From the NCBI GenBank assembly GCA_002269645.1, contig NIVC01000600.1, forward strand, positions 186,001 to 250,000: a DNA stretch of 64,000 nt, given 5' to 3'. The translations under genes were made by a program, and so were the position numbers. The DNA is from Macrostomum lignano (Eukaryota). This document shows, piece by piece, positions 18,301 through 64,000 of this stretch. The notes under the pieces were generated by a model, which had not been told where the DNA came from, did no database searches, and was given only the letters and a program-made list of their open reading frames with translations. Numbering within the stretch: the stretch's first letter is position 1; every line of letters begins with the position of its first letter.

Positions 18301-18459
18301 GCAGCGGTTACAACTGACTCACATTTCACACGTGAAGCATTCACTGCTGAAGAAAAAGGCAAAAACGAAAACTGCTTTCACTAAAAGCTCAGCACCCATC
18401 GCTTTTTAATCGCTTTTTAATGTCTCTGCTCCTTGAGTTTGGGTGATACTGCAGAGCTA

Positions 18460-33400: not shown

Positions 33401-36400
33401 CTCCGCTTCTTTTTGACTGACTGACTGACTGACTGACTGAGGCGGGTGAATCTCTTAGATGAAGAGGTTTTAGCGGCCCCAAGACTTTCCCTTTATGTTT
33501 GAGTGAAAAAACAGACTTAGAGCCTACTCCGTTCTAAGTATAGGAGGTCTAAGCTGCCGAGATTTACAGAGGCCGGTGAGTCAGTTAGATGAAGATTATA
33601 GCGATTCCAAGAGCTCTGTGTGTTTGAGTGATATTGCAGAGCTAGGCCTGGCTCTTTGTTCTAAGTATAGGACAGCCAAGGCTGCTAAGATATACAGAGG
33701 CCAGTGAGTCAGTTAGATGAAGATTATAGCGATTCCAAGAGCTCTGTGTGTTTGTGTGAAATGCTGAGTTGGGTCTGGCTCTTTGTTCTAAGTATAGGAC
33801 AGCCAAGGCTGCTAAGATATACAGAGGCGGCTGAATCAGTTCGATGAAGGAGTTATAGCGGCCCCAAGACTTTCCCTTTATGTTTGAGTGAAAATGCTGA
33901 GTTGGGTCTGTCTCTTTGTTCTAAGTATAGGACATCCAAGGCTGCTAAGATATACAGAGGCCAGTGAGTCAGTTAGATGAAGATTATAGCGATTCTAAGA
34001 GCTCTGTGTGTTTGAGTGAAAATGCTGAGTTGGGTCTGGCTCTTTGTTCTAAGTATAGGACAGCCAAGGCTGCTAAGATATACAGAGGCGGCTGAATCAG
34101 TTCGATGAAGGAGTTATAGCGGCCCCAAGACTTTCCCTTTATGCTTGAGCGAATATGCAGAGTTATTCCATGCTGGACTCCATGTCGCGAGGTAAAGCTA
34201 GCTTGCGCTGTGAATTGTTGTCTTTTCCCACAAAACTATATTCATTTTATTATCGATTTCTCCTCACTCGCAGATACACACGGTTCAAGCAACTTTTCAC
34301 ACTTTTCATCGCCTAGCTGAAACCAAACCAAACCTTTTATCTTTGCTAGTGTAGAATTGCATCCATTCTGTGTTGATAAAAATACGCTGGCTACGGCCTT
34401 GCGCCCCTCTCGTTCTTTCGCACCTTTGCCTTCTAACGTAATTTGTATGCATCGATTTCTCAGCTTCCCAGCTTCTCTCCGCTTCTCTCTGATAATCCCA
34501 GCTTCTTTCCGCCTCTTTCTAATAATCCCAGCTTCTCTCCGCCTCTTTCTGATAATCCCAGCTTCTCTCCGCCTCTTTCTGATAATCCCAGCTTCTCTCC
34601 GCCTCTTTCTGATAATCCCAGCTTCTTTCCGCCTCTTTCTAATAATCCCAGCTTCTCTCCGCCTCTTTCTGATAATCCCAGCTTCTCTCCGCCTTTTTCT
34701 AATAATCCCAGCTTTTCTCCGCCTCTTTCTAATAATCCCAGCTTCTTTCCGCCTCTTTCTAATAATCCCAGCTTCTTTCCGCTTCTCTCTGATAATCCCA
34801 GCTTCTCTCCGCTTCCCTCTGATAATCCCAGCTTCTCTCCGCCTCTTTCTGATAATCCCAGCTTCCTTCCGCTGCTTTCTGATAATCCCAGTTTCTCTCC
34901 GCTTCTCTCTGATAATCCCAGCTTCTTTCCGCTTCTTTCTGATAATCGCAGCTTCTCTCCGCTTCTCTCTGATAATCCCAGCTTCTTTCCGCTTCTCTCT
35001 GATAATCCCAGCTTCTTTCCGCTTCTCTCTGATAATCCCAGCTTCTTTCCGCTTCTTTCTGATAATCCCAGCTTTTCTCCGCTTCCCTCTGATAATCCCA
35101 GCTTCTCTCCGCTTCTTTTTGATATCCCAGCTTCTCTCCGCTTCTTTTTGATATCCCAGCTTCTCTCCGCTTCTTTTTGACTGACTGACTGACTGACTGA
35201 CTGAGGCGGGTGAATCTCTTAGATGAAGAGGATTTAGCGGCCCCAAGACTTTCCCTTTATGTTTGAGTGAAAAAACAGACTTAGAGCCTACTCCGTTCTA
35301 AGTATAGGAGGTCTAAGCTGCCGAGATTTACAGAGGCCGGTGAGTCAGTTAGATGAAGATTATAGCGATTCCAAGAGCTCTGTGTGTTTGAGTGATATTG
35401 CAGAGCTAGGCCTGGCTCTTTGTTCTAAGTATAGGACAGCCAAGGCTGCTAAGATATACAGAGGCCAGTGAGTCAGTTAGATGAAGATTATAGCGATTCC
35501 AAGAGCTCTGTGTGTTTGTGTGAAATGCTGAGTTGGGTCTGGCTCTTTGTTCTAAGTATAGGACAGCCAAGGCTGCTAAGATATACAGAGGCCAGTGAGT
35601 CAGTTAGATGAAGATTATAGCGATTCTAAGAGCTCTGTGTGTTTGAGTGAAAATGCTGAGTTGGGTCTGGCTCTTTGTTCTAAGTATAGGACAGCCAAGG
35701 CTGCTAAGATATACAGAGGCGGCTGAATCAGTTCGATGAAGGAGTTATAGCGGCCCCAAGACTTTCCCTTTATGTTTGAGTGAAAATGCTGAGTTGGGTC
35801 TGTCTCTTTGTTCTAAGTATAGGACATCCAAGGCTGCTAAGATATACAGAGGCCAGTGAGTCAGTTAGATGAAGATTATAGCGATTCTAAGAGCTCTGTG
35901 TGTTTGAGTGAAAATGCTGAGTTGGGTCTGGCTCTTTGTTCTAAGTATAGGACAGCCAAGGCTGCTAAGATATACAGAGGCGGCTGAATCAGTTCGATGA
36001 AGGAGTTATAGCGGCCCCAAGACTTTCCCTTTATGCTTGAGCGAATATGCAGAGTTATTCCATGCTGGACTCCATGTCGCGAGGTAAAGCTAGCTTGCGC
36101 TGTGAATTGTTGTCTTTTCCCACAAAACTATATTCATTTTATTATCGATTTCTCCTCACTCGCAGATACACACGGTTCAAGCAACTTTTCACACTTTTCA
36201 TCGCCTAGCTGTAACCAAACCAAACCTTTTATCTTTGCTAGTGTAGAATTGCATCCATTCTGTGTTGATAAAAATACGCTGGCTACGGCCTTGCGCCCCT
36301 CTCGTTCTTTCGCACCTTTGCCTTCTAACGTATTTTGTATGCATCGATTTCTCAGCTTCCCAGCTTCTCTCCGCTTCTCTCTGATAATCCCAGCTTCTTT

Positions 36401-38390
36401 CCGCCTCTTTCTAATAATCCCAGCTTCTCTCCGCCTCTTTCTGATAATCCCAGCTTCTCTCCGCCTCTTTCTAATAATCCCAGATTCTTTCCGCCTCTTT
36501 CTAATAATCCCAGCTTCTCTCCGCCTCTTTCTGATAATCCCAGCTTCTCTCCGCCTCTTTCTGATAATCCCAGCTTCTCTCCGCCTCTTTCTAATAATCC
36601 CAGCTTCTTTCCGCCTCTTTCTAATAATCCCAGCTTCTCTCCGCCTCTTTCTGATAATCCCAGCTTCTCTCCGCCTCTTTCTAATAATCCCAGCTTCTCT
36701 CCGCCTCTTTCTAATAATCCCAGCTTCTTTCCGCTTCTCTCTGATAATCCCAGCTTCTCTCCGCTTCCCTCTGATAATCCCAGCTTCTCTCCGCCTCTTT
36801 CTGATAATCCCAGCTTCCTTCCGCTGCTTTCTGATAATCCCAGTTTCTCTCCGCTTCTCTCTGATAATCCCAGCTTCTTTCCGCTTCTTTCTGATAATCG
36901 CAGCTTCTCTCCGCTTCTCTCTGATAATCCCAGCTTCTTTCCGCTTCCCTCTGATAATCCCAGCTTCTTTCCGCTTCTCTCTGATAATCCCAGCTTCTTT
37001 CCGCTTCTTTCTTATAATCCCAGCTTTTCTCCGCTTCCCTCTGATAATCCCAGCTTCTCTCCGCTTCTTTTTGATATCCCAGCTTCTCTCCGCTTCTTTT
37101 TGATATCCCAGCTTCTCTCCGCTTCTTTTTGACTGACTGACTGACTGACTGACTGACTGAGGCGGGTGAATCTCTTAGATGAAGAGGTTTTAGCGGCCCC
37201 AAGACTTTCCCTTTATGTTTGAGTGAAAAAACAGACTTAGAGCCTACTCCGTTCTAAGTATAGGAGGTCTAAGCTGCCGAGATTTACAGAGGCCGGTGAG
37301 TCAGTTAGATGAAGATTATAGCGATTCCAAGAGCTCTGTGTGTTTGAGTGATATTGCAGAGCTAGGCCTGGCTCTTTGTTCTAAGTATAGGACAGCCAAG
37401 GCTGCTAAGATATACAGAGGCCAGTGAGTCAGTTAGATGAAGATTATAGCGATTCCAAGAGCTCTGTGTGTTTGTGTGAAATGCTGAGTTGGGTCTGGCT
37501 CTTTGTTCTAAGTATAGGACAGCCAAGGCTGCTAAGATATACAGAGGCGGCTGAATCAGTTCGATGAAGGAGTTATAGCGGCCCCAAGACTTTCCCTTTA
37601 TGTTTGAGTGAATATGCAGAGTTATTCCATGCTGGACTCCATGTCGCGAGGTAAAGCTAGCTTGCGCTGTGAATTGTTGTCTTTTCCCACAAAACTATAT
37701 TCATTTTATTATCGATTTCTCCTCACTCGCAGATACACACGGTTCAAGCAACTTTTCACACTTTTCATCGCCTAGCTGAAACCAAACCAAACCTTTTATC
37801 TTTGCTAGTGTAGAATTGCATCCATTCTGTGTTGATAAAAATACGCTGGCTACGGCCTTGCGCCCCTCTCGTTCTTTCGCACCTTTGCCTTCTAACGTAT
37901 TTTGTATGCATCGATTTCTCAGCTTCTCAGCTTCTCTCCGCTTCTCTCTGATAATCCCAGCTTCTTTCCGCCTCTTTCTAATAATCCCAGCTTCTCTCCG
38001 CCTCTTTCTGATAATCCCAGCTTCTCTCCGCTTCCCTCTGATAATCCCAGCTTCTTTCCGCTTCTTTTTGATAATCCCAGCTTCTCTCTGCTTCTTTCTG
38101 ACTGACTGACTGACTGAGGCGGGTGAGTCTTAGATGAAGAGGTTTTAGCGGCCCTAAGACTTTCCCTTTATGTTTGAGTGAAAAAACAGACTTAGAGCCT
38201 ACTCCGTTCTAAGTATAGGAGGTCTAAGCTGCCGAGATTTACAGAGGCCGGTGAGTCAGTTAGATGAAGATTATAGCGATTCCAAGAGCTCTGTGTGTTT
38301 GAGTGAAAATGCTGAGTTGGGCCTGGCTCTTTGTTCTAAGTATAGGACAGCCAAGGCTGCTAAGATATACAGAGTCCAGTGAGGACAGCC
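18460..38390. repeat. ~20-kb hierarchical macrosatellite with 11 macro-units of about 1.4-2.4 kb
   Basis: Each unit is [127-130-bp monomers]n + ~310-bp constant segment + 30-bp minisatellite + (GACT)n. The constant segment (marked by the MHPFCVDKN ORF) recurs at 19765, 21200, 22577, 24991, 26696, 28983, 30688, 32713, 34357, ~36250 and 37816. Confidence 0.97.
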
Positions 38391-49715: not shown

Positions 49716-50288
49716 CTGCGGTGTAAATGAAATGAGATTATAGGACCAAACGCTCCTCAGCTGGTCTCTGATTGGCTTCCGCGCTGGTATACACATTGCC
49801 TCAGTTCTCTACCCCTTTATGGACACCCACCCCAATCCAGTCCGGGCCCTATAGTGCTGGTACAGACAATATTTTCTGACTGGTTATCTGTCTTTCCACA
49901 CAAACTGTTCATGACACACCAGCCAATCGATATATATTTTCTGTCTCGTTTTATTGCCCCACCTCACGCCCTCGCCAGCATAGGCTCGCTTATTGGCTAA
50001 CTAGGTATGTGCTTTTTCTCAAAAGCTAACTAGACTCGTCTGTTCACGACACCCCAGCCAATCGATATTTTTTCTGCCCCGTTATATTGCCCCACCTCAC
50101 ACTTTCTAGACTTCAGTGGCCAGCACAGACTGGCTGATTCATATTGGCTGACTGGTTAACCTGGCTTTCCACACAAACTGTTCACGATACCCTAGCCAAT
50201 TCTTCTCTGCCCCGTTTTGGGGTTTCCACGAAATTGGGGTGGCAGCTTTAATCCCAGTGCAGGAAGAAGAAGGAAGGCGGCAACTCAC

Positions 50289-50455
50289 AGACTGCAGATC
50301 GCGCCCGGTAGAATCCGCCGCCTGTCCGGCAGCCGCGCCCAGCGCTTGGCGCAGCAGCAGGTTGAGTGGGGCAAACAGCAGGTGCAGGGCGGCCATGCCA
50401 ATCACTGCGAAGGTGAAGCTGGCGTGCTTCACTAGCAGGCCGCCGATGATGGGGC
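50289..50455 (-). CDS. SLC18 transporter exon (TM12)
   Basis: PIIGGLLVKHASF..LHLLFAPLNLLLR parallels PSAGGAIAKAIGF..IDILFAPLCFFLR. Acceptor TCCAG|GC; probable donor TCT|GTGAGT. Confidence 0.85.
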
Positions 50456-50629
50456 CTGGATTGGAGTAGGATTTGAGGAAGATTTGTAATGAATATGAGG
50501 TGAACTGAAGTGAATGACGTTTTAGACGTTCAAAATGTGGGTTACACTCTTCTAGAAGCACAAACCCAATTAAATAGAACGTTTTAATAGCAATTGTTTC
50601 CTGTAAATCAGTTCTGTCTGCCTGCTCAC

Positions 50630-50813
50630 TGAAAATGAAAGCAGCCGCCACGCTGGTGTTGCACAGCGAGTAAACGCTGCCATAGGATCCCGGATGCCGC
50701 GTGTCCACCAGATTGCCAAGCAATGGAAACAGCGAGGCGTCTACGGTGCCCAGCGCCAGGCCAATTCCGAAGTGCGGCAGCAGCAGGTGGTAGACTGTCC
50801 TGGCAGACGGAAT
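50630..50813 (-). CDS. SLC18 transporter exon (TM10-11)
   Basis: PHFGIGLALGTVDASLFPLLGNLVDTRHPGSYGSVY parallels [36 protein letters not shown]. Confidence 0.92.
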
Positions 50814-51179
50814 CTTAAAGCGCAAGGGTGTACAATTGTCAGACTGAGAAATCAGTTAGTACACTTTGGACAGAGGCTCCTCTGCCACCTCTGACCTTTC
50901 ATTTAAAGCGACACTGATTGGCAGATGAGAAAGTGAGAGTTCATTGGCCTAGAATTCTTCTCTCTTCCTGACCTTCTGTGATTGGCTGGCGGGTGTGAGA
51001 GTAAAGTATTCTCCTCTCCTATTTGCCCTTTCATTGGCTCCTCCTTCTACTAGTACCTACCCATCGAAAGTGCCCCTCCCCCCCAGAAGCACCACTTACT
51101 CCTAATTTCATAGTTTCTATTGGCTGTAATTAACTGCTTACAAAACTTTCACTCAAAGCAAAAAACGATTACAACTCAC

Positions 51180-51310
51180 CACTGCGAAGCACACACCGGA
51201 CAGGGTGAAGCTAAGCAGGGCCTTCAGCCAGTCTTCGCCTACGGAACTGTGAGAACCGACCAGATTCGATGACAACAGGAAAGCGACGCTGTCCGGGAGA
51301 AACACGGCGC
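51180..51310 (-). CDS. SLC18 transporter exon (TM8-9)
   Basis: AVFLPDSVAFLLSSNLVG parallels VAFLPASISYLIGTNIFG. Splice phases 1/0 are consistent. Confidence 0.85.
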
Positions 51311-51392
51311 CTAGTTGAATGGATTCGAAGGCAGTCTGTTGTTTTTTGTGGTATCGATAATTTTGTATTGTCTGCCTCATCAGCCTGCTCAC

Positions 51393-51555
51393 CCAGCTGC
51401 CACTTCTCGGCTCGCATAGTCTTCTCAACCCAGATGGGAATGGTACTCTCCAGCAGAGAGATTCCAGCCTCCTGGAGGAATACGCCCAAAGTTGCTATGA
51501 GGATGTAGCGGTCGCACAGCAGAGTGGCGAGAGACTGCCGCTCGCCCCATTCCAC
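51393..51555 (-). CDS. SLC18 vesicular amine transporter (VMAT-like), internal exon (TM7 region); the 5' half of the gene is not in the window
   Basis: LLCDRYILIATLG..GISLLESTIPIWVEKTMRAEKWQLG parallels VMAT [37 protein letters not shown]. Acceptor CCTCAG|GTG, donor G|GTGAG. Confidence 0.9.
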
Positions 51556-51691
51556 CTGAGGAATGGGAGGAAGGAAGGTGAATTGGAGTCAGTAGAGGAG
51601 AGGTAAAGTCAACAATGGAGAAGCAGAGTCAGAGAAGCAGAAGTGGAGTCGGGAATCAAGGTGGAGAAGTGAAGTGATCTTAATTTAAGCA

Positions 51692-52240
51692 TGTTATGCC
51701 CAATGTTATTTTTTAGTCTAATGCGAACTTCAGAAGGTTTTTCTATCAGGAAAGTACAGCACATGCTTGTGCACCAGTAAAGATCCTATTGCGTGAAGCG
51801 AACACCAATGAAATGCGTTATAGAAATCATATATATACTAGCGTTCAGTGAGAATGAAGCCTCTCTCCAGTTTTTCCCGGTTCTCGGCTCTCCGCCTCTT
51901 TGCCTCCTCAACTGCTCCGCTAGCTTGCCCCAACAATCGGGCCTGAACTCTAATATCCCGATTTAACAGAGATAAATCCGGACAAACGTCAATTCGTGCA
52001 ACAATATCGATAAGTAGCCTGTGGCTCCATTTTCACTGAATTGCTTAACAAATTTGCGTAATTGCGTGATCAATATCCTATTAGGAATTGCTACTAACAT
52101 TGATTAGTAATAAACATCTTGTTGAAGGTTAGAGATCGAGAGAAACAAATCGAACCTCCGACTTATTTGATTCAACAGAAACATCAACGATCATAGTCAT
52201 CGTCAGAGGGGCACACCCCCGCAACAAAAAAATCTAAAAC
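51692..52240 (+). repeat. Candidate 5' LTR
   Basis: Starts TGTTA (51692 or 51704), TATA-like ATATATATA at ~51830, AATAAA at 52109, ends ..AACA (52226 or 52240) just before a PBS candidate. No second copy in the window to confirm it. Confidence 0.45.
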
Positions 52241-52247
52241 ATTTGAC

Positions 52248-52259
52248 TGGCTCCCCGAC
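52248..52259 (+). other. Candidate primer-binding site (tRNA-Asp)
   Basis: TGGCTCCCCGAC is complementary to a metazoan tRNA-Asp 3' end (..GUCGGGGAGCCA) as recalled; it lies a few nt after ..AAAACA. Confidence 0.55.
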
Positions 52260-54194
52260 CTTGTTTCTCTCCGTAATTTCCTTCAACATGCCCGGCTTCA
52301 ATATGCTGGGGTGAACACCTCCGTGGAGCTGGCTATGAGCTAGTGATGGCATCTTAGAAAGGGTCAGTAAAAAATATAAAAATTAAAAAATTACAAAATA
52401 TAAAAACCAATACAATTTGCAAAACTACAAAAATACTACGTGTATGATTCTCCCAAGCTGTAGAATCGTAGAAAAGATTAGTGTTATTTAATGTTCTTAA
52501 ATTTACAACCTCTAATCGCTCTCCCGCTTCGGAGAACCAGCAGCGAACCAGTCCTCAAACCGGTTCCGATGGGAATCCACCCATTCCCACTATTTACGCC
52601 CTTCTGATATACTTTCTCCGAGTACTTTGCTCGCCTCACCTCAAAGAACGTCAAGTTCACCTTGCTCTTTCTCCACAATCTCACTCTGTTCTATAAATAT
52701 CCTGCCTGGGCGACAAATCCCAACCAGGCAACCAGCATTGTCTCAATCCTTTTTCTATTTTTAGCCTCGCAAAACCAGTTCTCGTCCGGAGAATTCCGCC
52801 TTTACTCCGGCTGGTTCACAGCAGATCTGCATCGTTTTTCGTCTTCTGGAAATTCTAGTTCCATTCCGGTCTGCATCAGTTCACAAACCAGCCTCAACTG
52901 GCCTCAGTTCGCCTCACTCAGTTGGCTAAAACGCCCTATCGGCTCCGCGCCTCACTCAGTTGGCTCAACGCCCTACCACAATTCAGCTGTGATCCGCTCC
53001 AGCTCTTCTCTCCGCTGCAATTCTCATCCCCAGGGATAGAAAGTGAGGGAGAATGATTCTGTCACACCGGTGCGACACTCTCAGTACTCTCAATCTTCTC
53101 TTACCCCAGGGAATTCATTTTTGTTTCAATGGCTGCTCCCCCTCCTTGGGCTTTCCCATCAGAAACCCCCATTGTTCTCTAATGGGAATAATTTCCGTCC
53201 CAAGCTCTTATTTATACTACAATCCGCTTTCCTTCTCCGCAAAGTACAACCTACCACCCTCGTCTACCCATACACCAGCCCTTTAGCCTTCGCAGTCGTT
53301 CAAAATTTCTCAAAACAAAATAAAAATTACGCTGTGATTGCTACCCACCCTCTCCTATTCCCTATTCCTTGTTTCTCAATTTCAAGCAGCCACATCATTT
53401 CTTCATGATTAGCAGCGATAAGCCCGCGGCAATTTGTCCTATACACAGGACCTCTACACCTGCCTTCAGGTAATTATAATTCTATTTTAGTCGGCCGAAT
53501 CTATTTGTCAATTACACACTTAAACCCAGGACTGGTGCTTGGTTCATGCTCATCGTGTTCCAAGTTTGAAGTTTTGGCACGCCACTCATACGCCTCTGCC
53601 TTGCTTCCACAGACTTCTGCAGAGTCTCTTTCGTTCCTTTTACAACAAATTCAAATCGCGTACTCAACACGCATCGCCACATCCGCTGGCATCTTAACCA
53701 CAACTCACCAGCTGAGTTTTCAACGCCAATCCGTTCAATCTCAAAGGCATCAATCAACGCGCACATTGCCGCCTCCGCTGAATCTTCTACCGAAATCTGT
53801 TCAAATTCTAATCAAACTCAATCCAAGGATGAGGCTCAGCTTTTCTTGCTGCTTCTATGAAATATTTTAACCGCTCCACCGCTGAGCTATATTATAATTA
53901 GTACAGGCGCATCAGCCGACTCTACTCAGTTCTACTTTATACAACTGTTCAACACTTGCTCAAAATTGCTCTAAACTCACACTTTTGATAAATGATACTA
54001 CAGCTACCGAAGCTCTACATATTGAAAATTTGCTTATATAAAACAAAAAACTGACCCTGGATAGATGACCGCAAATCACGCTCAGATGCTATTGCTTCGC
54101 GCTATTTCAAATCTTTATTGTTACAAAATTGCGGATTATTTTCAACTCTTAATTGCAAGACCACTCGAAGTAAACCCATTCCACAGATCATTGC

Positions 54195-57100
54195 ATGAAA
54201 TTGCGTTCTGGTACCCAACTCGGACAACAACAACAACAAGAGCCGCCTGCAATATCCACACCAAATTCTGCCGGTGTCGCTGAAAATCCTATTGATATTT
54301 CTGGTGATTCTACTGGCATTTGTGGACATTCTACTGGTATTGGTGGACATTCTACTGGCATTGGAGGACACCATACTGACGACACCCAACAGCAACTAAC
54401 ACAAACAGCTACCCCAGCTACATTTTGCCATCTACCTGGCCTCCATCAAGAAAACACTGCCATCGGCACCAGAGACGAAGAACAACCTTCTGAGTTGTAC
54501 GAGCAGCAACAAGAACAACATCCTCCACAGCCACTTCTGCAACCTGATCATTTGAATCAAAATAACGCCAATATCCAGGAAACTGAGAGCAACGTTACAA
54601 TGGCAGAAGCACTAATGCAACAATTTATCAATGCTGTGCGAGATCAACAAAGACCACACGCTGCAATCCCAGCTAGTACCATCAACGAGATCCGCGAAGG
54701 TCTCAAGGAGATAGATCAACTTCATGATTTTGCCTCTTTCATCATGGAGTATGATCTATCAGCGAGAACTTTTAATCTAGATGAAAACTCAAAGCTTCGC
54801 ATCTTTCCTCGGCTCCTCAACGATCTCCTAAAGATCGAATATGCCGCTCTACCCGCCGAGACACAAAATGACTACACCCAATTAGTTCGGTCTCTGTCCG
54901 ACAGAATAGCGGTACTCACTCTCGGATCCACTTCGGCACTACATCACATCGCCAACCGCCGACAACTCCCGGGTGAGCCATTCATCCAGTACTACACGGA
55001 CATTCGCCGCAAACTTCGTGCCATATACCCAGAAGTCTCGCCACTACCACCCGTGGATGGCGAAAATGCACCGGCTAACCAAGCGGTCATTGACCAACGA
55101 AATGAAATGTTTAACAAAACATTGATCGGCCATATACTAAGTGGCGCTCTACCTCACCTTCGCGTTGAACTACTGCGAAACCCGCTGAATACCGAACAAC
55201 AGCTGCTCAACCAGGCCATTCGCCTTGAACAAATACAGCAGTCTTCACAATTAACGGCCCCAAACAACGTTCCGGCCGATATAGAAAAACGCCTTGCTGC
55301 CTTAGAATGTGGAACCATCAAGCCCAAGCCAATAGTAGCGGCTATTCAAGGCGCTAGCAATACTAGAGAACCACCAACGTGCAAATTCTGCCACAGGATT
55401 GGACACACAACAGATCGATGCTACCAGGATCCTCGAAATGCACGCCAACAAACTGCCAATGCTAGACAACCAAGACAGGCTGACTCTAAGTGGACACGCA
55501 ATCAACCGATTCAAGACCGGTACAGACGAGGCTCCGATGATCCTCGCAGCCGAGACACAGGCTCTCCAGCCAAATACTGCCACTTTCACAACTCGGACAC
55601 CCATGATACCGAAGAATGTCGTACCCTACACGATATTAAACAGGGGAGAACAACAAACAATAACCCACAGCGGTATAATCTAGGCCGGCGCGTACAATTT
55701 CAGCGCAACCCCACTCAACGATATCAACGGGAACGCCACTCTGATTCACCAAACCACGGACGTTCCAGAACACCGTCACCGCGCCCTCCTGCAGCCGGTG
55801 TAAACTCAATTCAGGTTGTCTCGAACGACCCCATGCCACAACTGCCGACTATGGACTCGCCTCAACAAATTGTGCCACCGAACAGCACACCCAGTGCTCC
55901 ACAGCGTCTCACTGAGGTTCCTGTGGCAAAATCAACGGCTACTCCAACCTATGCTTTGGACAGACCAATTGAGTACAAGTTCCATGGCTCGACCAGGCAG
56001 TTTAAGAAATTAATCCGCGACAGTCCATCTACACTGTCAGTCATCCACGTTCAACCGTACACTACGCTATCAGCCGCTCAACCAAAGCTAAGAAAAGATA
56101 TGCTACGTGCCCAGCGACAGCAGGTACACGTAAAAAGACCACTGTCTCAGCAGAAAGGACGTCGACTAACTGGTCTAACGACGCTTCTCGTGACACTCAT
56201 CTGGCTATCGCTATTCCCGACGGTGCAGACAACACCACTGCCATCGAATCCTAAGCAACATCCACTCTACGTGGACACACCAATGCTCTGTCCATTAGAT
56301 GGACCCGTGCGCATCTTCAAGATTCCTCAGCAGATCAGATGCGAACAGTTCACGTCGTCACAGGACGTTACGACACCAGTGCACTTACAGCTCTACTCTA
56401 CTAACCTGGAGCAAACCAGAACACCAGTCAGCTTATGCTTCCGTGAGGAAATCTCGGTTAATTGCCTCCCAATGAGCCAGGTTCTGCGCTCTCTCCGTGA
56501 TGCGTACGTAACCTTACGCCCACTTACAGTCGCCGCACAAGATTGCCAACATTGGACCGAATCATATAACTCACCTGATGGTCAGCTTCAACTGGTTGCC
56601 ACCACTGGAAACTACAAAATCTCTCGCTCCAATACAGGAACCTCCTTCCTCGAAGACTGTTACCATCGCAAGGCACGAACTCAAATAGTTTCAACACTCA
56701 TACAAGGGATAATAGCTTTCGCCTCTCCTAGCAAACCAATGGAATCGTTAGCCTTCTCCATGGCACACTGTAGCTATTCATCTCAAGGCTGCATTATTGA
56801 GACAACCTTTGACAACATGAAACGCTATAACCTACCGACAACTCTCCTTCAAAACGCATGGGACACTCTCGACCCACCGGCGACACAACAACTGACCGTT
56901 ACTGGCCAACGAAAACTGACACTTACGTGGAAAACAACAAGCCGTTCGGACTGTATACTCACGCCATTCCGACAAATTCGAGGTAACATACACTCGGGAT
57001 TCTTCATTAACGAAGAACAGACATTGGCTTTGACCTTTAAATTGCCGCTTCAACCCTTCCGCCTTACCTGCTCAATTGGAACGAAACGACTATATGTTTC

Positions 57101-58832
57101 CGAACAAGAACTGTACGTTGAAGTGCTCGACAACAGAGAAGAAGACTTCTTAAAGTCAATCGCGATTGTGCAATCTACAGCTGATGACACCACGAGCAAC
57201 ACAACACGCTCTGTCAAAGCCGCGGATGCTTTAACAGCTGACAGCAGCTCATCTTCTCGACAGAGCCGTTCACTACCTGACTTATTGGCTACCACAGAAC
57301 AACCGTCAACCACACCGATTCCGACGACAGTTCAAGCTCCAACTATTACGTCTCTACCCTCACAGCAGACGCTTGATACAGCTTCACCTACATCCGAGCC
57401 TACTGTCACTACCACTACAATTAAAAAATCTACTACCACACCTCTAAATCTGGAAATTACAACTCCACCAACTACGACAATAGCGACTAGTACAGTTCAA
57501 ACACCCACAACAACGATGTCGCTTAGAAAACCTCAACACACTACATCTCTTCAACTTAAGTCTACAACTCTACCAACGACAGTAGCCACAACTACAGTTA
57601 CGTCGTATAGTCCGCTAACTACGAAAACGACGACATCTACCGGTATTACCACCGAACAACTAACTCCTGGACCTATGTCTACAACACCTACTACCATACT
57701 GGAACCTGATCCTCTTAATATACCATACCTACACCGCGACCAACCACCAATGCTGGAACATCAGGACAGAATCCGTCGCGCGATTCCACCTCCAGACAAA
57801 ACAGTCAACATCACCAACGCTGAACTCAAGCTATCAGAAAACCTCGTTTCGGCACAGCTTCTCTCCAGTCAACTACAAGGACTTCAATCGAAGACTCTAC
57901 TCGATCTCAAGAAACTACACACTCAACTGACGACTACGCAGTGCAAGATGTACGCTTTGAATCTTCGCTATAGTCGCAACCTATACTATACCAATCCGAC
58001 ACTAGCTGCGCGTCAATTATTCGCTGACAAATTCATTTATGCGCACTCCATCGCTGGCTACATCTTTGTTCACCAATGTAAGCCACTAAGTCAGTTCCAG
58101 TTCGTTCAACCGCGATACTCACGAGACGAATGCTACACAAGACCACCGATACAATTTCAACTCCACAATAAGTCTGTTCTCGGATTCCTCGATACAACGA
58201 CATCGATCATCTCAACAGCAAGACCACCACTAATATCCTGCCGTTACCTACGAGACTACTATCTTCCAAAGGGTGAATTCATCTACAAAGCCACAGCCAA
58301 CTTCAGCTCCTTTAGTCCGATAGAAGCACAAAATAGATCCGACGAAACCTACCTCCTACAGTCCTTATACTCCGACATTAGACAGAGTATCTTCACGCCA
58401 CTTGGAGACGTCAACTACAGCGCTTTACGATCACCAGTAACAATAACTGACATGATGGAAAGTTTCATCCAAACACGTGATTTTCTAATCACTGTCTTTA
58501 AACTAAACAACGCTACTGGACGTCTCCACAAGGATGAATTCAAGCAGTTTGGCCTAAACGCCTTGGAAGCTTACCAGAATCTTTGGACATCTACCTTCTT
58601 CAGTTGGGAAAGATTCCAACAGAATCATATGGAGAAGTTTCTGTTCAGTTCTGCTGTAATTGTCTACGCTGCACTACTAATTTTCCTTTGCAACATTGGT
58701 CGAATCTGCGTTGCCAACACACTAACTTATGGTCGAACACACCGCCTTATGGTAATGCGAACGACCGACCCATCACCGCAACAAAACCGGAGCCCACAGC
58801 GACTTCCTACTACCCCGACCACGTGTCGTTAG
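54195..58832 (+). CDS. gag-env: Gag-Env fusion polyprotein, 1545 aa (Gag ~aa 1-540, linker, internal signal segment, gB-like glycoprotein, TM, tail)
   Basis: CKFCHRIGHTTDRC (CX2CX4HX4C) and CHFHNSDTHDTEEC knuckles. Hydrophobic LTGLTTLLVTLIWLSLFPTVQT (~56166-56230). Cys-patterned ectodomain with several N-X-S/T sequons. TM FLFSSAVIVYAALLIFLCNIG (~58638-58700). No stop between gag and env. Confidence 0.9.
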   Translation: MKLRSGTQLGQQQQQEPPAISTPNSAGVAENPIDISGDSTGICGHSTGIGGHSTGIGGHHTDDTQQQLTQTATPATFCHLPGLHQENTAIGTRDEEQPSELYEQQQEQHPPQPLLQPDHLNQNNANIQETESNVTMAEALMQQFINAVRDQQRPHAAIPASTINEIREGLKEIDQLHDFASFIMEYDLSARTFNLDENSKLRIFPRLLNDLLKIEYAALPAETQNDYTQLVRSLSDRIAVLTLGSTSALHHIANRRQLPGEPFIQYYTDIRRKLRAIYPEVSPLPPVDGENAPANQAVIDQRNEMFNKTLIGHILSGALPHLRVELLRNPLNTEQQLLNQAIRLEQIQQSSQLTAPNNVPADIEKRLAALECGTIKPKPIVAAIQGASNTREPPTCKFCHRIGHTTDRCYQDPRNARQQTANARQPRQADSKWTRNQPIQDRYRRGSDDPRSRDTGSPAKYCHFHNSDTHDTEECRTLHDIKQGRTTNNNPQRYNLGRRVQFQRNPTQRYQRERHSDSPNHGRSRTPSPRPPAAGVNSIQVVSNDPMPQLPTMDSPQQIVPPNSTPSAPQRLTEVPVAKSTATPTYALDRPIEYKFHGSTRQFKKLIRDSPSTLSVIHVQPYTTLSAAQPKLRKDMLRAQRQQVHVKRPLSQQKGRRLTGLTTLLVTLIWLSLFPTVQTTPLPSNPKQHPLYVDTPMLCPLDGPVRIFKIPQQIRCEQFTSSQDVTTPVHLQLYSTNLEQTRTPVSLCFREEISVNCLPMSQVLRSLRDAYVTLRPLTVAAQDCQHWTESYNSPDGQLQLVATTGNYKISRSNTGTSFLEDCYHRKARTQIVSTLIQGIIAFASPSKPMESLAFSMAHCSYSSQGCIIETTFDNMKRYNLPTTLLQNAWDTLDPPATQQLTVTGQRKLTLTWKTTSRSDCILTPFRQIRGNIHSGFFINEEQTLALTFKLPLQPFRLTCSIGTKRLYVSEQELYVEVLDNREEDFLKSIAIVQSTADDTTSNTTRSVKAADALTADSSSSSRQSRSLPDLLATTEQPSTTPIPTTVQAPTITSLPSQQTLDTASPTSEPTVTTTTIKKSTTTPLNLEITTPPTTTIATSTVQTPTTTMSLRKPQHTTSLQLKSTTLPTTVATTTVTSYSPLTTKTTTSTGITTEQLTPGPMSTTPTTILEPDPLNIPYLHRDQPPMLEHQDRIRRAIPPPDKTVNITNAELKLSENLVSAQLLSSQLQGLQSKTLLDLKKLHTQLTTTQCKMYALNLRYSRNLYYTNPTLAARQLFADKFIYAHSIAGYIFVHQCKPLSQFQFVQPRYSRDECYTRPPIQFQLHNKSVLGFLDTTTSIISTARPPLISCRYLRDYYLPKGEFIYKATANFSSFSPIEAQNRSDETYLLQSLYSDIRQSIFTPLGDVNYSALRSPVTITDMMESFIQTRDFLITVFKLNNATGRLHKDEFKQFGLNALEAYQNLWTSTFFSWERFQQNHMEKFLFSSAVIVYAALLIFLCNIGRICVANTLTYGRTHRLMVMRTTDPSPQQNRSPQRLPTTPTTCR

Positions 58833-60148
58833 TACCATTAGTACTTACTTCGCCCTCTAGGAGAAACACAAAGGCGACAGCCCCATCAGCTCCACCTATG
58901 GAACTCGAAGAACGACAGCCAGCTATACCGTCTACTTCTTCACGGACAGATTCAAGACTCTACCCGACACTTCAACACTGGCCGGTTGCCTACAACACCG
59001 TCTTGAAACATCTTACGATGCGAACCCTCATCACGCTCTGGTGCACAAGCCCAAGAATGACCAAATGCAAGTGCACCGCGCTGATTGATAGTGGCGCCTC
59101 TATCTCTTGCGTTTCACCTACCTTCGCACAGAAACTACAGGCTGACATTTTACCCTGTAAAATACGCGTTCAATGTGCAGGAGGACAACTTCTTAACGTA
59201 ACTAAACAGGCTAAATTTAGTATGATCATCGGATCATCAAATCGGAAAATCACAGCTTACATATTGGAGGCTATGCCACCCGATTATGATCTAATTCTCG
59301 GTGTCGAAACCTTTAAATCCCTTGGCATACCACTGTCCATTGACTACGCCAAGTCAGAAGCACAAATCGATGGCACTTCGTTTCCCATATTGAATACTTA
59401 CACAGCAACTGAGGTCGCTGAAGTCTACTTGCCAAAGCAGACTCACATACCCGCTCAATCTACCACCTGGATACAGGCGAATATCGACACGACCTATCCA
59501 AAGCGCCAGCCTGTCCTATTCATACCAAAGGATCATACTATTCAACGCTATAAGCTCTTAATCGCAAGCTGCTTGACGCTTACAGATGAAACGGGTAATT
59601 CGATCCTCATACAGATCGCTAACCCTTCACTACAGCCAGTAACACTCTATGCTCAAACACGATTAGGCAGTCTGTCCGATCCCGCGGAATATACACCTGT
59701 TACTTCAAAACCTACAGCAACAGTCAATACCATCTCTACCTCGCACGCACGACCTGAGACCGACCGCCAGCTAATTGAACAACAAACACGGCCTAACAAT
59801 TCGCATCTGACACCCGAACAAGCTACGAGACTGTGCGACCTACTTTTAGAGTACCGAGATACGCTGGCTCTGTTACCTACGGATATGGGATGCACTACTC
59901 AATATACCGCCACAATTAACGTTCAACCACATACGCATCCAATTACATCGCGACCTTTTCCGATTGCACATGGTCTTCAAGAGCGTTTTGACCAACTGAT
60001 CGAGAATTTCATCCACAAAGGAATACTCAGCCCTAGCGAGTCGGAATACTCAAGCCCATGTCTACTGGTCGAAAAGAAGACACTTGATGAACAAGGACGC
60101 CGCCAATTGCGTCTTGTCGTTGACTTTCGCCGTCTCAACGAATTCTAA
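58583..60148 (+). CDS. pol: Pol part 1: aspartic protease and RT N-terminus, in the -1 frame relative to gag-env; true start unknown
   Basis: ALIDSGAS protease motif; RT start PITSRPFPI..KGILSPSESEYSSPCLLVEKK..RLVVDFRRLNE. The 58583 start is a TTG, not credible as an initiator. Confidence 0.92.
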   Translation: MDIYLLQLGKIPTESYGEVSVQFCCNCLRCTTNFPLQHWSNLRCQHTNLWSNTPPYGNANDRPITATKPEPTATSYYPDHVSLVPLVLTSPSRRNTKATAPSAPPMELEERQPAIPSTSSRTDSRLYPTLQHWPVAYNTVLKHLTMRTLITLWCTSPRMTKCKCTALIDSGASISCVSPTFAQKLQADILPCKIRVQCAGGQLLNVTKQAKFSMIIGSSNRKITAYILEAMPPDYDLILGVETFKSLGIPLSIDYAKSEAQIDGTSFPILNTYTATEVAEVYLPKQTHIPAQSTTWIQANIDTTYPKRQPVLFIPKDHTIQRYKLLIASCLTLTDETGNSILIQIANPSLQPVTLYAQTRLGSLSDPAEYTPVTSKPTATVNTISTSHARPETDRQLIEQQTRPNNSHLTPEQATRLCDLLLEYRDTLALLPTDMGCTTQYTATINVQPHTHPITSRPFPIAHGLQERFDQLIENFIHKGILSPSESEYSSPCLLVEKKTLDEQGRRQLRLVVDFRRLNEF

Positions 60149-62751
60149 CAACACCAAGCATACGCCCGCCACGTATACCGGACCTCCTACTACGCCTACG
60201 CGACGCCAAACTTTATTCGTTGTGCGACCTTGCCGACGCGTTTTACCAAGTCCGACTAGACCCAGACAGCGCCAAATATACCGCCTTCATCGCACCTAAT
60301 GGCCTCCTTTTTCAGTTTAATCGCTTGCCACAGGGTCTGGCCGCATCTCCCAGCCTGATGTGTCGTCTAGTCGCTCTACTCACAGCAGATTCACCTAATC
60401 TTATCGCCTACCTGGACGATGTACTCCTAATCGCAAAGGACTTTAATGGCATGCTGGGTGAACTCAGACATTTCTTGGCGAAACTCCGCCATCACGGTCT
60501 TCGTATCTCGCTTAGAAAATGCACCTTTGCAAAGAACGAAGTACAGTATCTAGGCTTTCAAGTGTCCGAACATGGAATCCGACCGGCACCAGCGCTTGTC
60601 GAAAAAATTAAGAACTTCCCGGAACCTAAGACACCTAAGCAACTGCAGTCCTTCCTCGGACTTGCCAACTTTTATCGCTCGCATGTACAAGGATACTCTA
60701 CGATTGTGACACCATTGCTTCGTGCTCTCAAAGACGCTCTGGCTACAAAAAGTTTGAAATGGACTACTATCACACAGACGGCCTTTGACAACATCCGAAA
60801 GATTCTGTCAACTGATATTATACTAGTACATCCTGATCCTCGAAAGCCCTACGTGCTTCATACGGATGCCTCTGACTACTCTCTTGGTGCAGTCCTCTCT
60901 CAACACGATTCGCGTGGACATCTGCAACCCGTCGCTTACATCTCTAAAACTTTGACTCCGACGGAACAACGTTATCCTGCCATTGAGAGAGAAGCCTATG
61001 CTATCTATTGGGCGATTCGGAAGCTCCATGTTTTCCTATACGCCTCACACCTACCATTTACAGTGTTCACGGATCACCAACCGTTGCAATCTCTGTTCAC
61101 TGACAAACAGCCTCTCTCGAAACGACTGCAAAAGTGGATTCTACATCTACAGGATTACCAATTTTCGATCCACTATATTAAAGGCCGCTCAAACGCTGTA
61201 GCCGACTGCCTGTCCCGTATTCCTAGTGTGAATACTTTACATCCCATCCCAGCCTTTGACAACTTGCACGAAGCAGTAAACCAAGACCCATTCTGTGCGA
61301 CAGTGATAGCCACTCTACAGAACCAAAAAGACGACGTACTAACATCCATGTACAAGAACTTATCGAAAACAGAACAAAAACATCTGACGAAACATCTACA
61401 CCACTTCTACTACACCAACGACACACTCTACTACGATCCATTGGAAGGTGACTCTCGTAGTCCTAACTCGTCGACACCACGTCTGGTGATCCCAACCGCC
61501 TACAGAGACGCTCTCCTTCAGGAATGCCATTCCTCTCCATTTGGAGGACACCTTGGTCTTCAGAAAACCTTGTCCCGACTCAGCAAATTCTACTATTGGC
61601 CCAATTGCCACGCAGACGTGACAAGCTTCGTTAACAAATGCGAGATTTGTCAAAAAGCCAAATCAGGACCTCGACTGCGTTCAGAACAGAAAGCAATGAA
61701 ATTCCGCAGTGTCTTCTCACACCTGGCTATTGATCTTGTAGGACCGTTACCACCGGCTCATTACATGCGAGATGTGTACAAGTACATCTTGACAGCTCAG
61801 TGTGGTGTTAGCAAGTTTCTGTTCACGATACCACTGGCTGATACAACCACGTCTACTATTTGCAACCATTTGTTTCGACATGTCTTCGCGATAGCCGGAC
61901 TTCCGGCCTGTCTGATTTCTGATAATGGACCACAGTTCATTTCCAAGGAGTTCCGCGAGTACATGGACACAATGGGAATCCGACTGATCTACACATCAGT
62001 CTATCAACCATCCAGCAATTTCGTAGAACGTGCCCACCGAAACCTCAAACAGACACTAACTACCTTTGTGCACGACAAGCCCGATCACTGGATCGAATAT
62101 TTGCCAGCAGTGACTCTTGCGTTGAACACCGCAGCCCACACTGCCATGAAGGAATCGCCATTCTACCTGTTCTACGCCCGTGACTTCCTGGCACCCAGCA
62201 CAAGAATCCTCGAAAATCAAATATCGATCTACACCGAGGAAATCCAACCAATCAGCTTGACCTGCTCAGCGATCACATTGGCCAGAGAAATTGCTCTCCA
62301 TCACCTACACTCTACAGCCGATCAACGGGCCCAGAAACAGAACGAAGAAAAAGCCCCTAATGCTCAAAAGCTCACCATAGGCTCCCGCTGTTACTTAGAC
62401 ATATCTGCTACTAAGCTGACAAAGTTCTCTAATCCGTTCCGAGGACCGATGCGAATTCTAAAATGGCTGAGCCCACAGAATGCGCTAATCCAGGATATTA
62501 ATAAGCTGACAGAGCCACCATTCGTAGTCCATGCCTCCAAGCTAAAACGTTCCCCTTTTCAACCACAAGAGGAACTCAATCTGCCGAACTTCACATCATC
62601 GATACCACAGACTCACTTCGACCACCACCCGCCACTGGCACAGCATCACGCTACTCAGACTGACGTCGTGGATGAGCCTGACACTCGTGATCAGCACGGA
62701 CTAGAACCTATTCCAGCTGTGCGATATCATCTGCGCTCACGGGATGTGTGA
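60146..62751 (+). CDS. pol: Pol part 2: RT-RNase H-integrase, continuing after a 1-nt frameshift at ~60145
   Basis: The frame reopens as LTTPSIRPPRIPDLLLRLRDAKLYSLCDLADAFYQV. Motifs LPQGL and YLDD (RT); LHTDASDYSLGAVLSQ, EREAYAI and TDHQPL (RH); H..H..CEIC, IDLVGPLP, SDNGPQF and VERAHR (IN); GPMRI (GPY/F-like). Confidence 0.95.
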
Positions 62752-64000
62752 ATCAATACGCGGCAGTTGATTATCGATGGACAGTTGATTATCGATACGT
62801 TTTGAAAATTATTTTTGTTTATATTATTTCTATTAGTTTTATAATTATATATTATATCTTTCTTCCTCTTAAATCGCAATTTATCATTTTCCGCTTCAAC
62901 TTATATATCTTCGTTAGATAATTTCCTTGACAATACGCTACTCTTTTGCTACTCACAGTAGAAATGTCAGTTCTCAACACTCTTATCAAAATTATTGTTT
63001 TATTCTGTTGTCGTCAAACGCTTTAGCCCTACATTTTATTTGCTTACCTTTAATTACTATCACTCACCCTTGAAAAAATTTATCAGAACCATCTTCTCTA
63101 CTCTTGCTCACCCACGTGAACTCAATGATCTTTTCTTTCGTCACCTCATAATCCCTATTCGGTCTTTTGTAAGACCACGCGTTACCCGGATCTACACAGC
63201 CGTCCCGCTCTACACTGCAATCCGGCTCTACACGCTGCCCTGACCGAAATTCAGCTTCGACTCTGTTCAACACCAACCCGGCCCACTGCCCAGCCCTATC
63301 TACTACTTGGAAACAACCTGCTATGCTCCGAATTAACAGACTACATGCCTGCTACCGACAACTACGGCTAACTACGAACTACGACACCGGCCTGACTACA
63401 GAAACCCTACTGGCTGCAACAAAACTAAGACGAACAGCACTATCTGACACGTGGTGGCCTTGAAAAAGGCCGTTTTGACGTTGGCGCCCAAAGGACGCAG
63501 AAGACTTGGCAGACCAACTGTGCAGTTACACCGCAGTCTCCTGGACACGGGCAGTTGCAGCGGGCCGCAATGGTGCGCGACAACAGCGGCTGCAGCCGCC
63601 AAAGCAGCAGCAACACTTGCAGCAACAACAGCAGGCTACAAACGCCGCCACTAGCAGTAACAGCAGCAGCAGCATGATGGCGACGACCGCGCTGATGGAA
63701 ATGAAATACGCGTGACGCCCCTGGAGAATACCAGCCGCGATCTCTGTAATTTGCTCTCTTCCCAAAGACAGACCAGCCATTGACTAATCTAACTTGAATG
63801 ATAAACGAGCTATATCGAAACTTAAAAACAATTGCGGACAAAACCTGAACTAGAAAATTCCCTCCCTATCGTTTTTTATCTTATTTATACCACGCGACTC
63901 CATCCTTTCCTTTGAATTAGCTTCAGTGTACACTCACGCGCTCTACGAACACCCACCCCAAGCCAATAATCTCTTCGACCCCACGTACAATGTACATTCT

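Follow-up and report, generated by a model that had tools for sequence, protein, structure and literature searches.

In the window analysed here, a stretch of 64,000 nucleotides of the Macrostomum lignano contig NIVC01000600.1 (positions 186,001 to 250,000), the pol gene of a retroelement lies out of frame with the gag-env gene that precedes it, and the question is how Pol is made. The original prediction had offered three models: one ORF broken by a 1-nt deletion in this copy, a non-canonical -1 frameshift after the Env transmembrane segment, and foamy-like expression of pol from a spliced RNA. Inspection of the reading frames confirmed that the gag-env frame ends at the TAG at 58830-58832 and that pol is in the -1 frame relative to it. 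The pol frame, described as open from 58583 with a 250-nt overlap, is however open from 58538, and the overlap is 295 nt. The region 58500-58835 contains no X_XXY_YYZ heptamer in any phase; the donor-like CAG|GTAATT (53467-53475), the acceptor-like motif ending at 58860 (58841-58860) and the ATG at 58898 are all present. The single-base loss that shifts the frame was placed near 58814 (58810-58818), in the cytosolic linker between Env and the protease. It was found that a second -1 break, absent from the original prediction, lies near 60138 (60134-60142); this loss is private to the window copy and splits the RT domain. These features are on the plus strand, as are all others unless stated.

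The window holds a young Ty3/gypsy errantivirus of the GAG-ENV-POL type with a gB-type Env. The structural features of Ty3/gypsy (Metaviridae) elements, namely LTRs, a target-site duplication and a tRNA primer-binding site, were all found. The 5' LTR of 577 bp occupies 51670-52246 and the 3' LTR lies just past the window end; the sole difference between the two is a cluster of 4 mismatches at 52227-52232. The 4-bp target-site duplication is at 51666-51669, its partner lying beyond the 3' LTR and outside the window, and such duplications flank all seven copies whose two ends are both present (in the eighth, the contig stops within the element). The primer-binding site of 13 nt (52248-52260) complements the 3' end of the host tRNA-Asp(GTC) including the added CCA. 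Pfam matches to gag-asp_proteas, RVT_1, RT_RNaseH, Integrase_H2C2 and rve give the gypsy-type order PR-RT-RH-IN, with no Bel/Pao family among the Pfam matches of the element. The aspartic protease (PF13650/PF13975) is at 59069-59308, and the rest of RT, RNase H and integrase extends over 60124-62751 with the ORF stop at 62749-62751. The best match in the PDB is the Ty3 Gag-Pol (E 1.8e-83). The env sits between gag and pol, as in GAG-ENV-POL errantiviruses of the HSV/gB type.

The gag part of the polyprotein (54195-56159, its 5' boundary taken as the first ATG) has two Cys/His knuckle-like motifs and no Pfam match of its own in this element; database proteins with a homologous env carry Ty3_capsid or Retrotrans_gag. 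It is followed by a predicted internal signal peptide (56160-56231), picked by eye from the sequence, which falls under the hydropathy cut-off here, whereas the corresponding segment of both related families exceeds it. The Env ectodomain (56232-58628) is predicted to be a class III fusogen of the kind represented by herpes gB and nyamivirus G. Its AlphaFold model (mean pLDDT 64.5, pTM 0.43) gave as best Foldseek matches the Nyavirus G (E 6.9e-18) and KSHV gB (E 5.6e-14), so that the modelled gB-like fold has strong E-values with low global TM-scores of only 0.2-0.4. A word-indexed protein search with Env found no match at near lengths, whereas a full HMMER search found 48 matches. Between two furin-like R-x-x-R sites, both also present in both related families, lies a mucin-like insert of 170 aa (57258-57779; 54% T/S/P) that is disordered in the model. 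The Env transmembrane helix is at 58629-58700. A late-domain-like PSAP motif, P(T/S)AP being a late-domain motif, is at 58883-58894, 5' of the ATG at 58898, and is common to all three families.

Comparison with other copies bears directly on the frame offset. The element occurs at 8 near-identical places in the genome including the window, which gives 7 sisters. The multi-copy alignment proposed in the original prediction was run over the junction, and it was observed that the stop and the offset are not kept: six of the seven sisters are continuous there, as a lesion in this copy predicts, while one sister shares the loss, which counts against a lesion confined to this copy. At the RT break all seven are continuous. 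In four of the seven the frame is intact all the way from gag to integrase, equivalent to three of six independent sister insertion sites because two share a flank. The exception at the env/pol junction, C158, is missing the base that the window copy has lost and has another loss 46 nt upstream. In public contig sets (8 sets, from 24 runs listed) the continuous form was found in all seven covering 58814, set X20 lacking cover there, and in all eight covering 60138. Contigs collapse rare variants and are therefore silent on whether a short allele exists at this locus. A database protein of 2852 aa (P0001) has gag, env and pol in one chain, with an env 100% identical to that of the window and PR, RT, RH and IN following it; the same fused order is seen in P0048, P0044 and P0027, whose env is only distantly similar. 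A continuous frame is supported by 9 of 20 copies of the related families, in which one frame free of stops spans the env transmembrane segment and the protease; the other 11, broken between env and protease, speak against it. Since six of seven sisters and all seven covering contig sets carry the continuous form, the first of the three models is supported: the offset is almost certainly a single-base loss in this copy of an element whose family encodes one continuous Gag-Env-PR-RT-RH-IN frame.

As to the origin of the loss, within this explanation we give about two thirds of the weight to an assembly error and one third to a real mutation. An assembly error is favoured because each of the 10 frame-breaking events, which fall in 4 of the 8 copies, is a net single-base loss, and because other copies have substitutions at 4 of the 8 sites concerned. 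In addition, a second family shows the same mosaic, with recurrent single-base losses in env (4/12 copies), PR (3/12) and RT (4/12). That 5 of the 12 copies of this family share one loss in the linker between the transmembrane segment and the protease counts against a flaw peculiar to single copies, though this loss is at another distance from the transmembrane segment than here and accompanies the similarly recurrent losses elsewhere. Differences between LTR pairs across copies also point this way, as they are mostly gaps (7, against 1 isolated mismatch and the one 4-base cluster, which is private to the 5' LTR of the window copy). The loss common to C158 and the window copy would also be explained by a shared real mutation. 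Three related copies (C114, C45 and C1272) have common in-frame stops between env and protease; read-through of these was considered and rejected, because the same copies also have many frame breaks in PR and RT.

A continuous ORF suggests how the products could be made. One chain of 2852 aa, inferred for the family, would cross the ER membrane twice. Gag would remain cytosolic, the internal signal peptide would direct the gB-type Env to the lumen, where signal peptidase would free it, and furin would excise the mucin insert. With the transmembrane helix the chain would re-enter the cytosol, where the PSAP-bearing tail and Pol would lie, and the element's own protease would release this part. 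Such a single threaded chain would need neither a frameshift nor a pol splice.

Expression of pol from a foamy-like spliced mRNA (53470 to 58861, starting at ATG 58898), as the main or a minor extra route, is very unlikely. A donor, an acceptor and an ATG are indeed present, and a continuous ORF is compatible with an additional spliced RNA. However, in 200 Markov simulations the coding part was expected to contain 2.2 +/- 1.4 acceptor-like motifs (4 were found) and the element 1.7 NAG|GTRA donors (3 were found); the splice signals are thus no more than chance gives. The acceptor-like motif is likely a chance occurrence, and the donor-like motif, whose +6 base differs between copies, shows no sign of use. 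No acceptor-like motif occurs in the same spacer of the seven related-family copies tested, and both related families have Ile where the ATG stands here but keep the PSAP peptide upstream of it; PSAP would therefore be untranslated from the spliced RNA unless a leader ATG is in frame. No joint from the leader to 58861 was found in the 8 contig sets, but contigs drop rare forms and the RNA status is a guess, and this observation is given no weight here. The sole joint that falls within coding sequence, from 56830 to 62571 (two of the eight sets), was rejected as a splice because the identical junction occurs in genomic DNA, in the internally deleted copy C1356. A programmed non-canonical -1 frameshift after the Env helix is the most improbable reading and hardly credible, for although retroelements usually make less Pol than Gag, a ratio that a single ORF leaves unexplained, and a short form is seen in 2 of 8 copies and a loss in the same linker in 5 of 12 copies of the second family, no shift is required in six of seven sisters or in the seven covering contig sets, so that the offset is not a family trait, there is no slippery heptamer (only AAAA and CCCC runs) and no unusual hairpin, the strongest nearby 60-nt fold being surpassed by 16% of coding windows, and the same kind of break occurs inside RT, where recoding is senseless. 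The env/pol junction is thus resolved and ordinary. It serves as a warning that the single-base losses scattered through multi-copy elements of this assembly look like recoding.

Of more consequence than the junction is an antisense gene downstream of pol. On the minus strand, 63526-63780 encodes a protein of 84 aa with one transmembrane helix, a Cys cluster and a C-terminal E-T-x-V, which we take to be a class I PDZ-binding-like motif. Its language-model recognition score of 2261 is just under the 2300 reached by most known families. Six weak protein matches were obtained (E 0.004-0.3); among the five examined none had pol nearby, and only C513 had the hairpin described below. A TATA-like box, a consensus match only, is at 63883-63889 (minus strand). 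It precedes the antisense ATG by 109 nt, and most host histone genes have a box of this kind 85-98 nt upstream. Past the stop codon lies a histone-type 3' stem-loop (63456-63471, minus strand) with a 6-bp stem, a 4-nt loop and histone-like flanks, followed 9 nt downstream by GAT(A/G). The Rfam search gave no match in the window at the gathering threshold; the hairpin surfaced only at an E-value threshold, as a match to RF00032 of 29.7 bits (E 3.8e-6), where the gathering score is 34 bits. A homologous antisense ORF and the hairpin are kept in three divergent families, and in all three the hairpin with its flanks lies 47-88 nt past the antisense stop and is the best-conserved DNA after pol. In two of the three it is identical to the host histone hairpin, and the same pattern terminates host histone genes. 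The CCACC flank is kept along with the downstream GAT(G/A), a candidate U7-pairing element, as in 13 of 18 host histone contexts; the GAT(G/A) was found in all ten retroelement contexts. The host encodes the SLBP RNA-binding domain (9 matches over the cut-off); six of these were examined as possibly element-borne and appear to be duplicated host genes.

From this arrangement, it is likely that the antisense mRNA uses the host SLBP/U7 route and ends, like a histone mRNA, at an SLBP-bound stem-loop. If it is cut by SLBP/U7 instead of being polyadenylated, the antisense protein would be made in S-phase cells, and the histone-type ending thus likely ties the gene to dividing cells. We hold in even balance the wider proposal that an envelope-carrying gypsy lineage took over the histone-mRNA pathway, with SLBP/U7 cutting and no polyadenylation, and makes a small Cys-rich membrane protein with a PDZ-binding-like tail in S-phase from an antisense gene that has no intron. 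In a flatworm the S-phase cells are the stem and germ cells that the element must reach. If the proposal is true, the antisense message would escape poly(A)-based surveys.

It is possible, though doubtful, that the hairpin at 63456-63471 acts instead on the sense genomic RNA, where its GAAA tetraloop would be a signal for packaging or dimer formation, or was carried along from a histone gene as a passenger, the antisense ORF then having no histone-type mRNA. Read as its reverse complement the sequence likewise forms a perfect hairpin, the AAAC 5' flank is absent in one family, and the Rfam score stays under the gathering cut-off; the histone-type RNA end is moreover a prediction, and the protein score falls short (2261 vs 2300). 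Against this, the hairpin and flanks follow a homologous antisense ORF in every one of the families, with identity to the host hairpin in two and retention of CCACC and GAT(G/A). In 3 decayed copies the stem has a U-G variant for which pairing is possible on the antisense strand alone, which argues weakly in the same direction.

The likeness of the element to foamy viruses and -1 frameshifting retroelements is a superficial offset in the window copy only; unlike them, the family has a continuous ORF and no conserved splice or slip signal. The nematode endogenous retroviruses (NERV) of Sacco et al. 2022 are reported to place Env before pol, to have a glycoprotein akin to RNA-virus G proteins, and to combine one continuous gag-env-pro-pol ORF with small extra ORFs. 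Their host group is probably different from that of the present element, and they are not known to have a histone-type stem-loop or a mucin insert. Coronavirus E, influenza B NB and the animal SMIM5/18/22 resemble the antisense protein in having about 80 aa, one transmembrane helix and a Cys cluster, and its nearest language-model clusters are small viral membrane proteins and SMIMs at scores of 0.85-0.90, a range reachable by shuffled proteins; this likeness is a lead only, as no alignment supports homology. GAG-ENV-POL Ty3/gypsy errantiviruses of the HSV/gB type are described from Nematoda, Bryozoa and Platyhelminthes (Chary and Hayashi, PMC13524379). In the available part of that paper they share with our element the gag-env-pol order, a gB-type Env between hydrophobic segments, LTRs, a tRNA primer-binding site and several copies above 98% identity. 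Compared by description, the only flatworm element for which it lists LTR data differs in its LTRs, which are about 863 bp long, and in its primer-binding site, the values here being 577 bp and tRNA-Asp, and the available main text makes no mention of frameshift, splicing, polyprotein, histone, antisense or accessory genes. The layout is thus already published, and the antisense gene with a histone-type 3' stem-loop is what is new here. A literature search, with most subscription journals outside its scope, found no report of such a stem-loop on a non-histone gene of a retroelement. Replication-dependent histone mRNA 3' ends are formed with a stem-loop, SLBP, HDE and U7 snRNP, and the stem-loop end is treated as the hallmark of these mRNAs (PMC10730174). 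The antisense gene shares with them the 6-bp stem, 4-nt loop, flanks and a downstream purine motif at about 10 nt, as well as a short 3' UTR and an intronless ORF, in a host that has the SLBP domain; unlike them it encodes a small membrane protein in a retroelement, with processing predicted from sequence. If the prediction is true, a mobile element that keeps this stem-loop on a non-histone gene in three divergent families would offer a natural example of a parasite that exploits mRNA processing coupled to the cell cycle.

Three long frames lie on the plus strand of the window (54174-58832, 58538-60148 and 60124-62751). Pfam places an aspartic protease in the second frame; the third holds its matches to reverse transcriptase (RT), RNase H and integrase. 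The solved structure nearest to pol is that of Ty3. The offset between the env and pol frames and the TAG were found where the original prediction had located them. The pol frame does overlap the gag-env frame, but it opens at 58538 and not at 58583, which gives 295 nt of overlap. Another -1 break was observed at about 60138, and its position within the RT domain suggested damage rather than recoding.

When 58300-60500 was compared with the genome, eight near-identical places were obtained, the window among them. At the env/pol break six of the seven sister copies are one base longer and their frame is continuous through it; one sister also carries the short form, plus a further loss 46 nt upstream. 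The frame is continuous through the RT break in all seven, and unbroken from gag to integrase in four, two of which share one flank and so count as three of six sister insertion sites. Eight public contig sets, from 24 runs listed, were compared, and the continuous form was present in all seven covering 58814 and in all eight at 60138. A database protein of 2852 aa carries an identical Env together with PR, RT, RH and IN in one chain, and the fused order occurs likewise in other database proteins, whose Env similarity is only distant. Among 20 copies from related families of the same genome, 9 have env and protease in a single frame free of stops, and the remaining 11 are broken at varied sites. 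The proposal that one ORF lost a base in this copy is thus borne out by sisters, contig sets, database protein and related families, and it is very likely that the env/pol junction is a single-base flaw.

The loss itself could be an assembly error or a real mutation. The coding part of the eight copies holds ten frame-breaking events, every one a net single-base loss; four of the eight loss sites are positions substituted in other copies, and the sharing pattern is mosaic. A like pattern exists in env, linker, PR and RT of a second family, with one linker loss common to 5 of 12 copies. Most differences within LTR pairs are gaps, and a cluster of 4 bases in the 5' LTR of the window copy matches neither its own 3' LTR nor any of the seven sisters. 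These features fit consensus-calling errors in collapsed repeats, a probable source to which we give a confidence of about two thirds. The less likely alternative is that a young copy suffered a real mutation, since contigs conceal rare alleles. Expression of pol from a spliced mRNA is not supported. The donor-like motif (about 53470), the acceptor-like motif (58860) and the ATG (58898) are present as predicted, but such motifs occur at chance frequency (donors 3 against 1.7 expected, acceptors 4 against 2.2), no acceptor was found in the same spacer of seven of seven related copies, and both related families have Ile in place of the ATG. Upstream of this ATG all three families conserve a PSAP peptide (58883-58894), which indicates that the stretch is translated as the Env tail. 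A -1 frameshift is not supported either: there is no slippery site, no X_XXY_YYZ heptamer lies between 58500 and 58835 (the original prediction likewise reported none in the correct phase after the Env TM), and the folds around the break are not unusual.

We infer that the family makes a single chain, in which cytosolic Gag would be followed by an internal signal peptide, a luminal gB-type Env, a TM helix, a cytosolic PSAP tail and Pol, with cleavage by signal peptidase, furin and the element's own protease. The structural model of the Env ectodomain has a mean pLDDT of 64.5. Its matches are to herpesvirus gB, with a best E of 5.6e-14, and to nyamivirus and further RNA-virus G proteins, and global TM-scores are low. 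A mucin-like insert (57258-57779, plus strand) may be excised as a free glycopeptide, because furin-like sites kept in both related families flank it on both sides.

The 5' LTR (51670-52246, plus strand) is 577 bp long and the 3' LTR lies just past the window end. Target-site duplications of 4 bp occur in all seven copies having both ends; judged by these, the LTR termini are TG...GA, the usual form being TG...CA. The primer-binding site, a 13-nt complementary match, corresponds to host tRNA-Asp. The leader (52261-54194) is unusually long at about 1.9 kb and varies more between copies than the ORF does. An acceptor-like stretch seen by eye at about 54160 could form a 5' UTR intron with the 53470 donor; no such joint was seen in the eight contig sets. 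Four of seven insertion sites (flanks of C270/C4280, C247, C158 and C471) lie in or adjoin short tandem repeats with units of 12-36 bp, possibly a target preference. One internally deleted copy (G000:C1356, L115), in which 56830 is joined to 62571, retains both LTRs and an intact antisense gene, and its junction is also present in two of the eight contig sets. Minus-strand exons at 50139-51588 directly adjoin the 5' LTR and resemble those of a gene for an MFS / vesicular amine transporter. About 18400-37200 is a large higher-order satellite with units of about 1.4-2.4 kb, in which 30-bp arrays alternate with repeats of 128/133 bp.

On the minus strand, the product of an ORF at 63526-63780 is 84 aa long; it has a single TM helix and a cluster of Cys residues, and it ends in E-T-x-V. 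It belongs to a gene (63431-63889, minus strand) with a TATA-like box and a histone-type 3' stem-loop, kept in three retroelement families, antisense and 3' of pol in each. The hairpin lies about 55 nt past the stop and scores 29.7 bits (E 3.8e-6) with Rfam Histone3, below the 34-bit cut-off. A tight hairpin pattern gave 116 genomic matches and none in the reversed control. From these, 38 distinct contexts and 20 further loci were counted: the former end core histone genes in 20 cases (including two H2A genes that the script had left as "other"), TM+Cys ORFs in 10 and other or decayed sequence in 8, and the latter comprise 10 histones, 8 TM+Cys ORFs and 2 without ORF. The RT-to-IN proteins of these families are 64-68% identical to the window element and the small proteins 34-39% identical. 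In all three pairwise comparisons of the regions after pol, no DNA match ranks above the hairpin (E 1.5e-4, 1.9e-6 and 1.6e-9). Against the host histone stem, that of the window family shows a paired double change and the other two match exactly. In 10/10 retroelement and 13/18 histone contexts the hairpin is followed by a GAT(G/A) motif.

SLBP is encoded by the host; its RNA-binding exon was found at nine places with identical scores (L175-L184), which look like duplicated host genes. Stem-loop, SLBP, downstream element and U7 are all required for histone-type processing (PMC10730174). Judging from the sequence, the antisense hairpin could direct such processing; the main rival would have it act on the sense strand. 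Elsewhere, an ORF that does not encode a histone but has a Cys-rich stretch like a zinc ribbon (L059/L122 on G000:C195, about 406657; L046 on G000:C40) stops about 45 nt short of a histone-type stem-loop and downstream GATA. We take this stretch to resemble Merlin/ISXO2 transposase N-termini, and the ORF may be a second mobile element with a histone-type end.

The element is of a known kind, with one apparently undescribed feature that could matter, the antisense gene with its histone-type end; we consider it about as likely as not that this gene uses the host's histone mRNA processing. Literature searches found no report of such a retroelement gene. Nematode NERVs reportedly have a continuous ORF. 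The main text of PMC13524379 holds no antisense gene with a histone-type end, and that paper describes elements of nematodes, bryozoans and flatworms that have a gB-type Env and the order GAG-ENV-POL; the host is on this basis probably a flatworm. Plant Retand elements are already known to carry antisense ORFs (PMC11963269).
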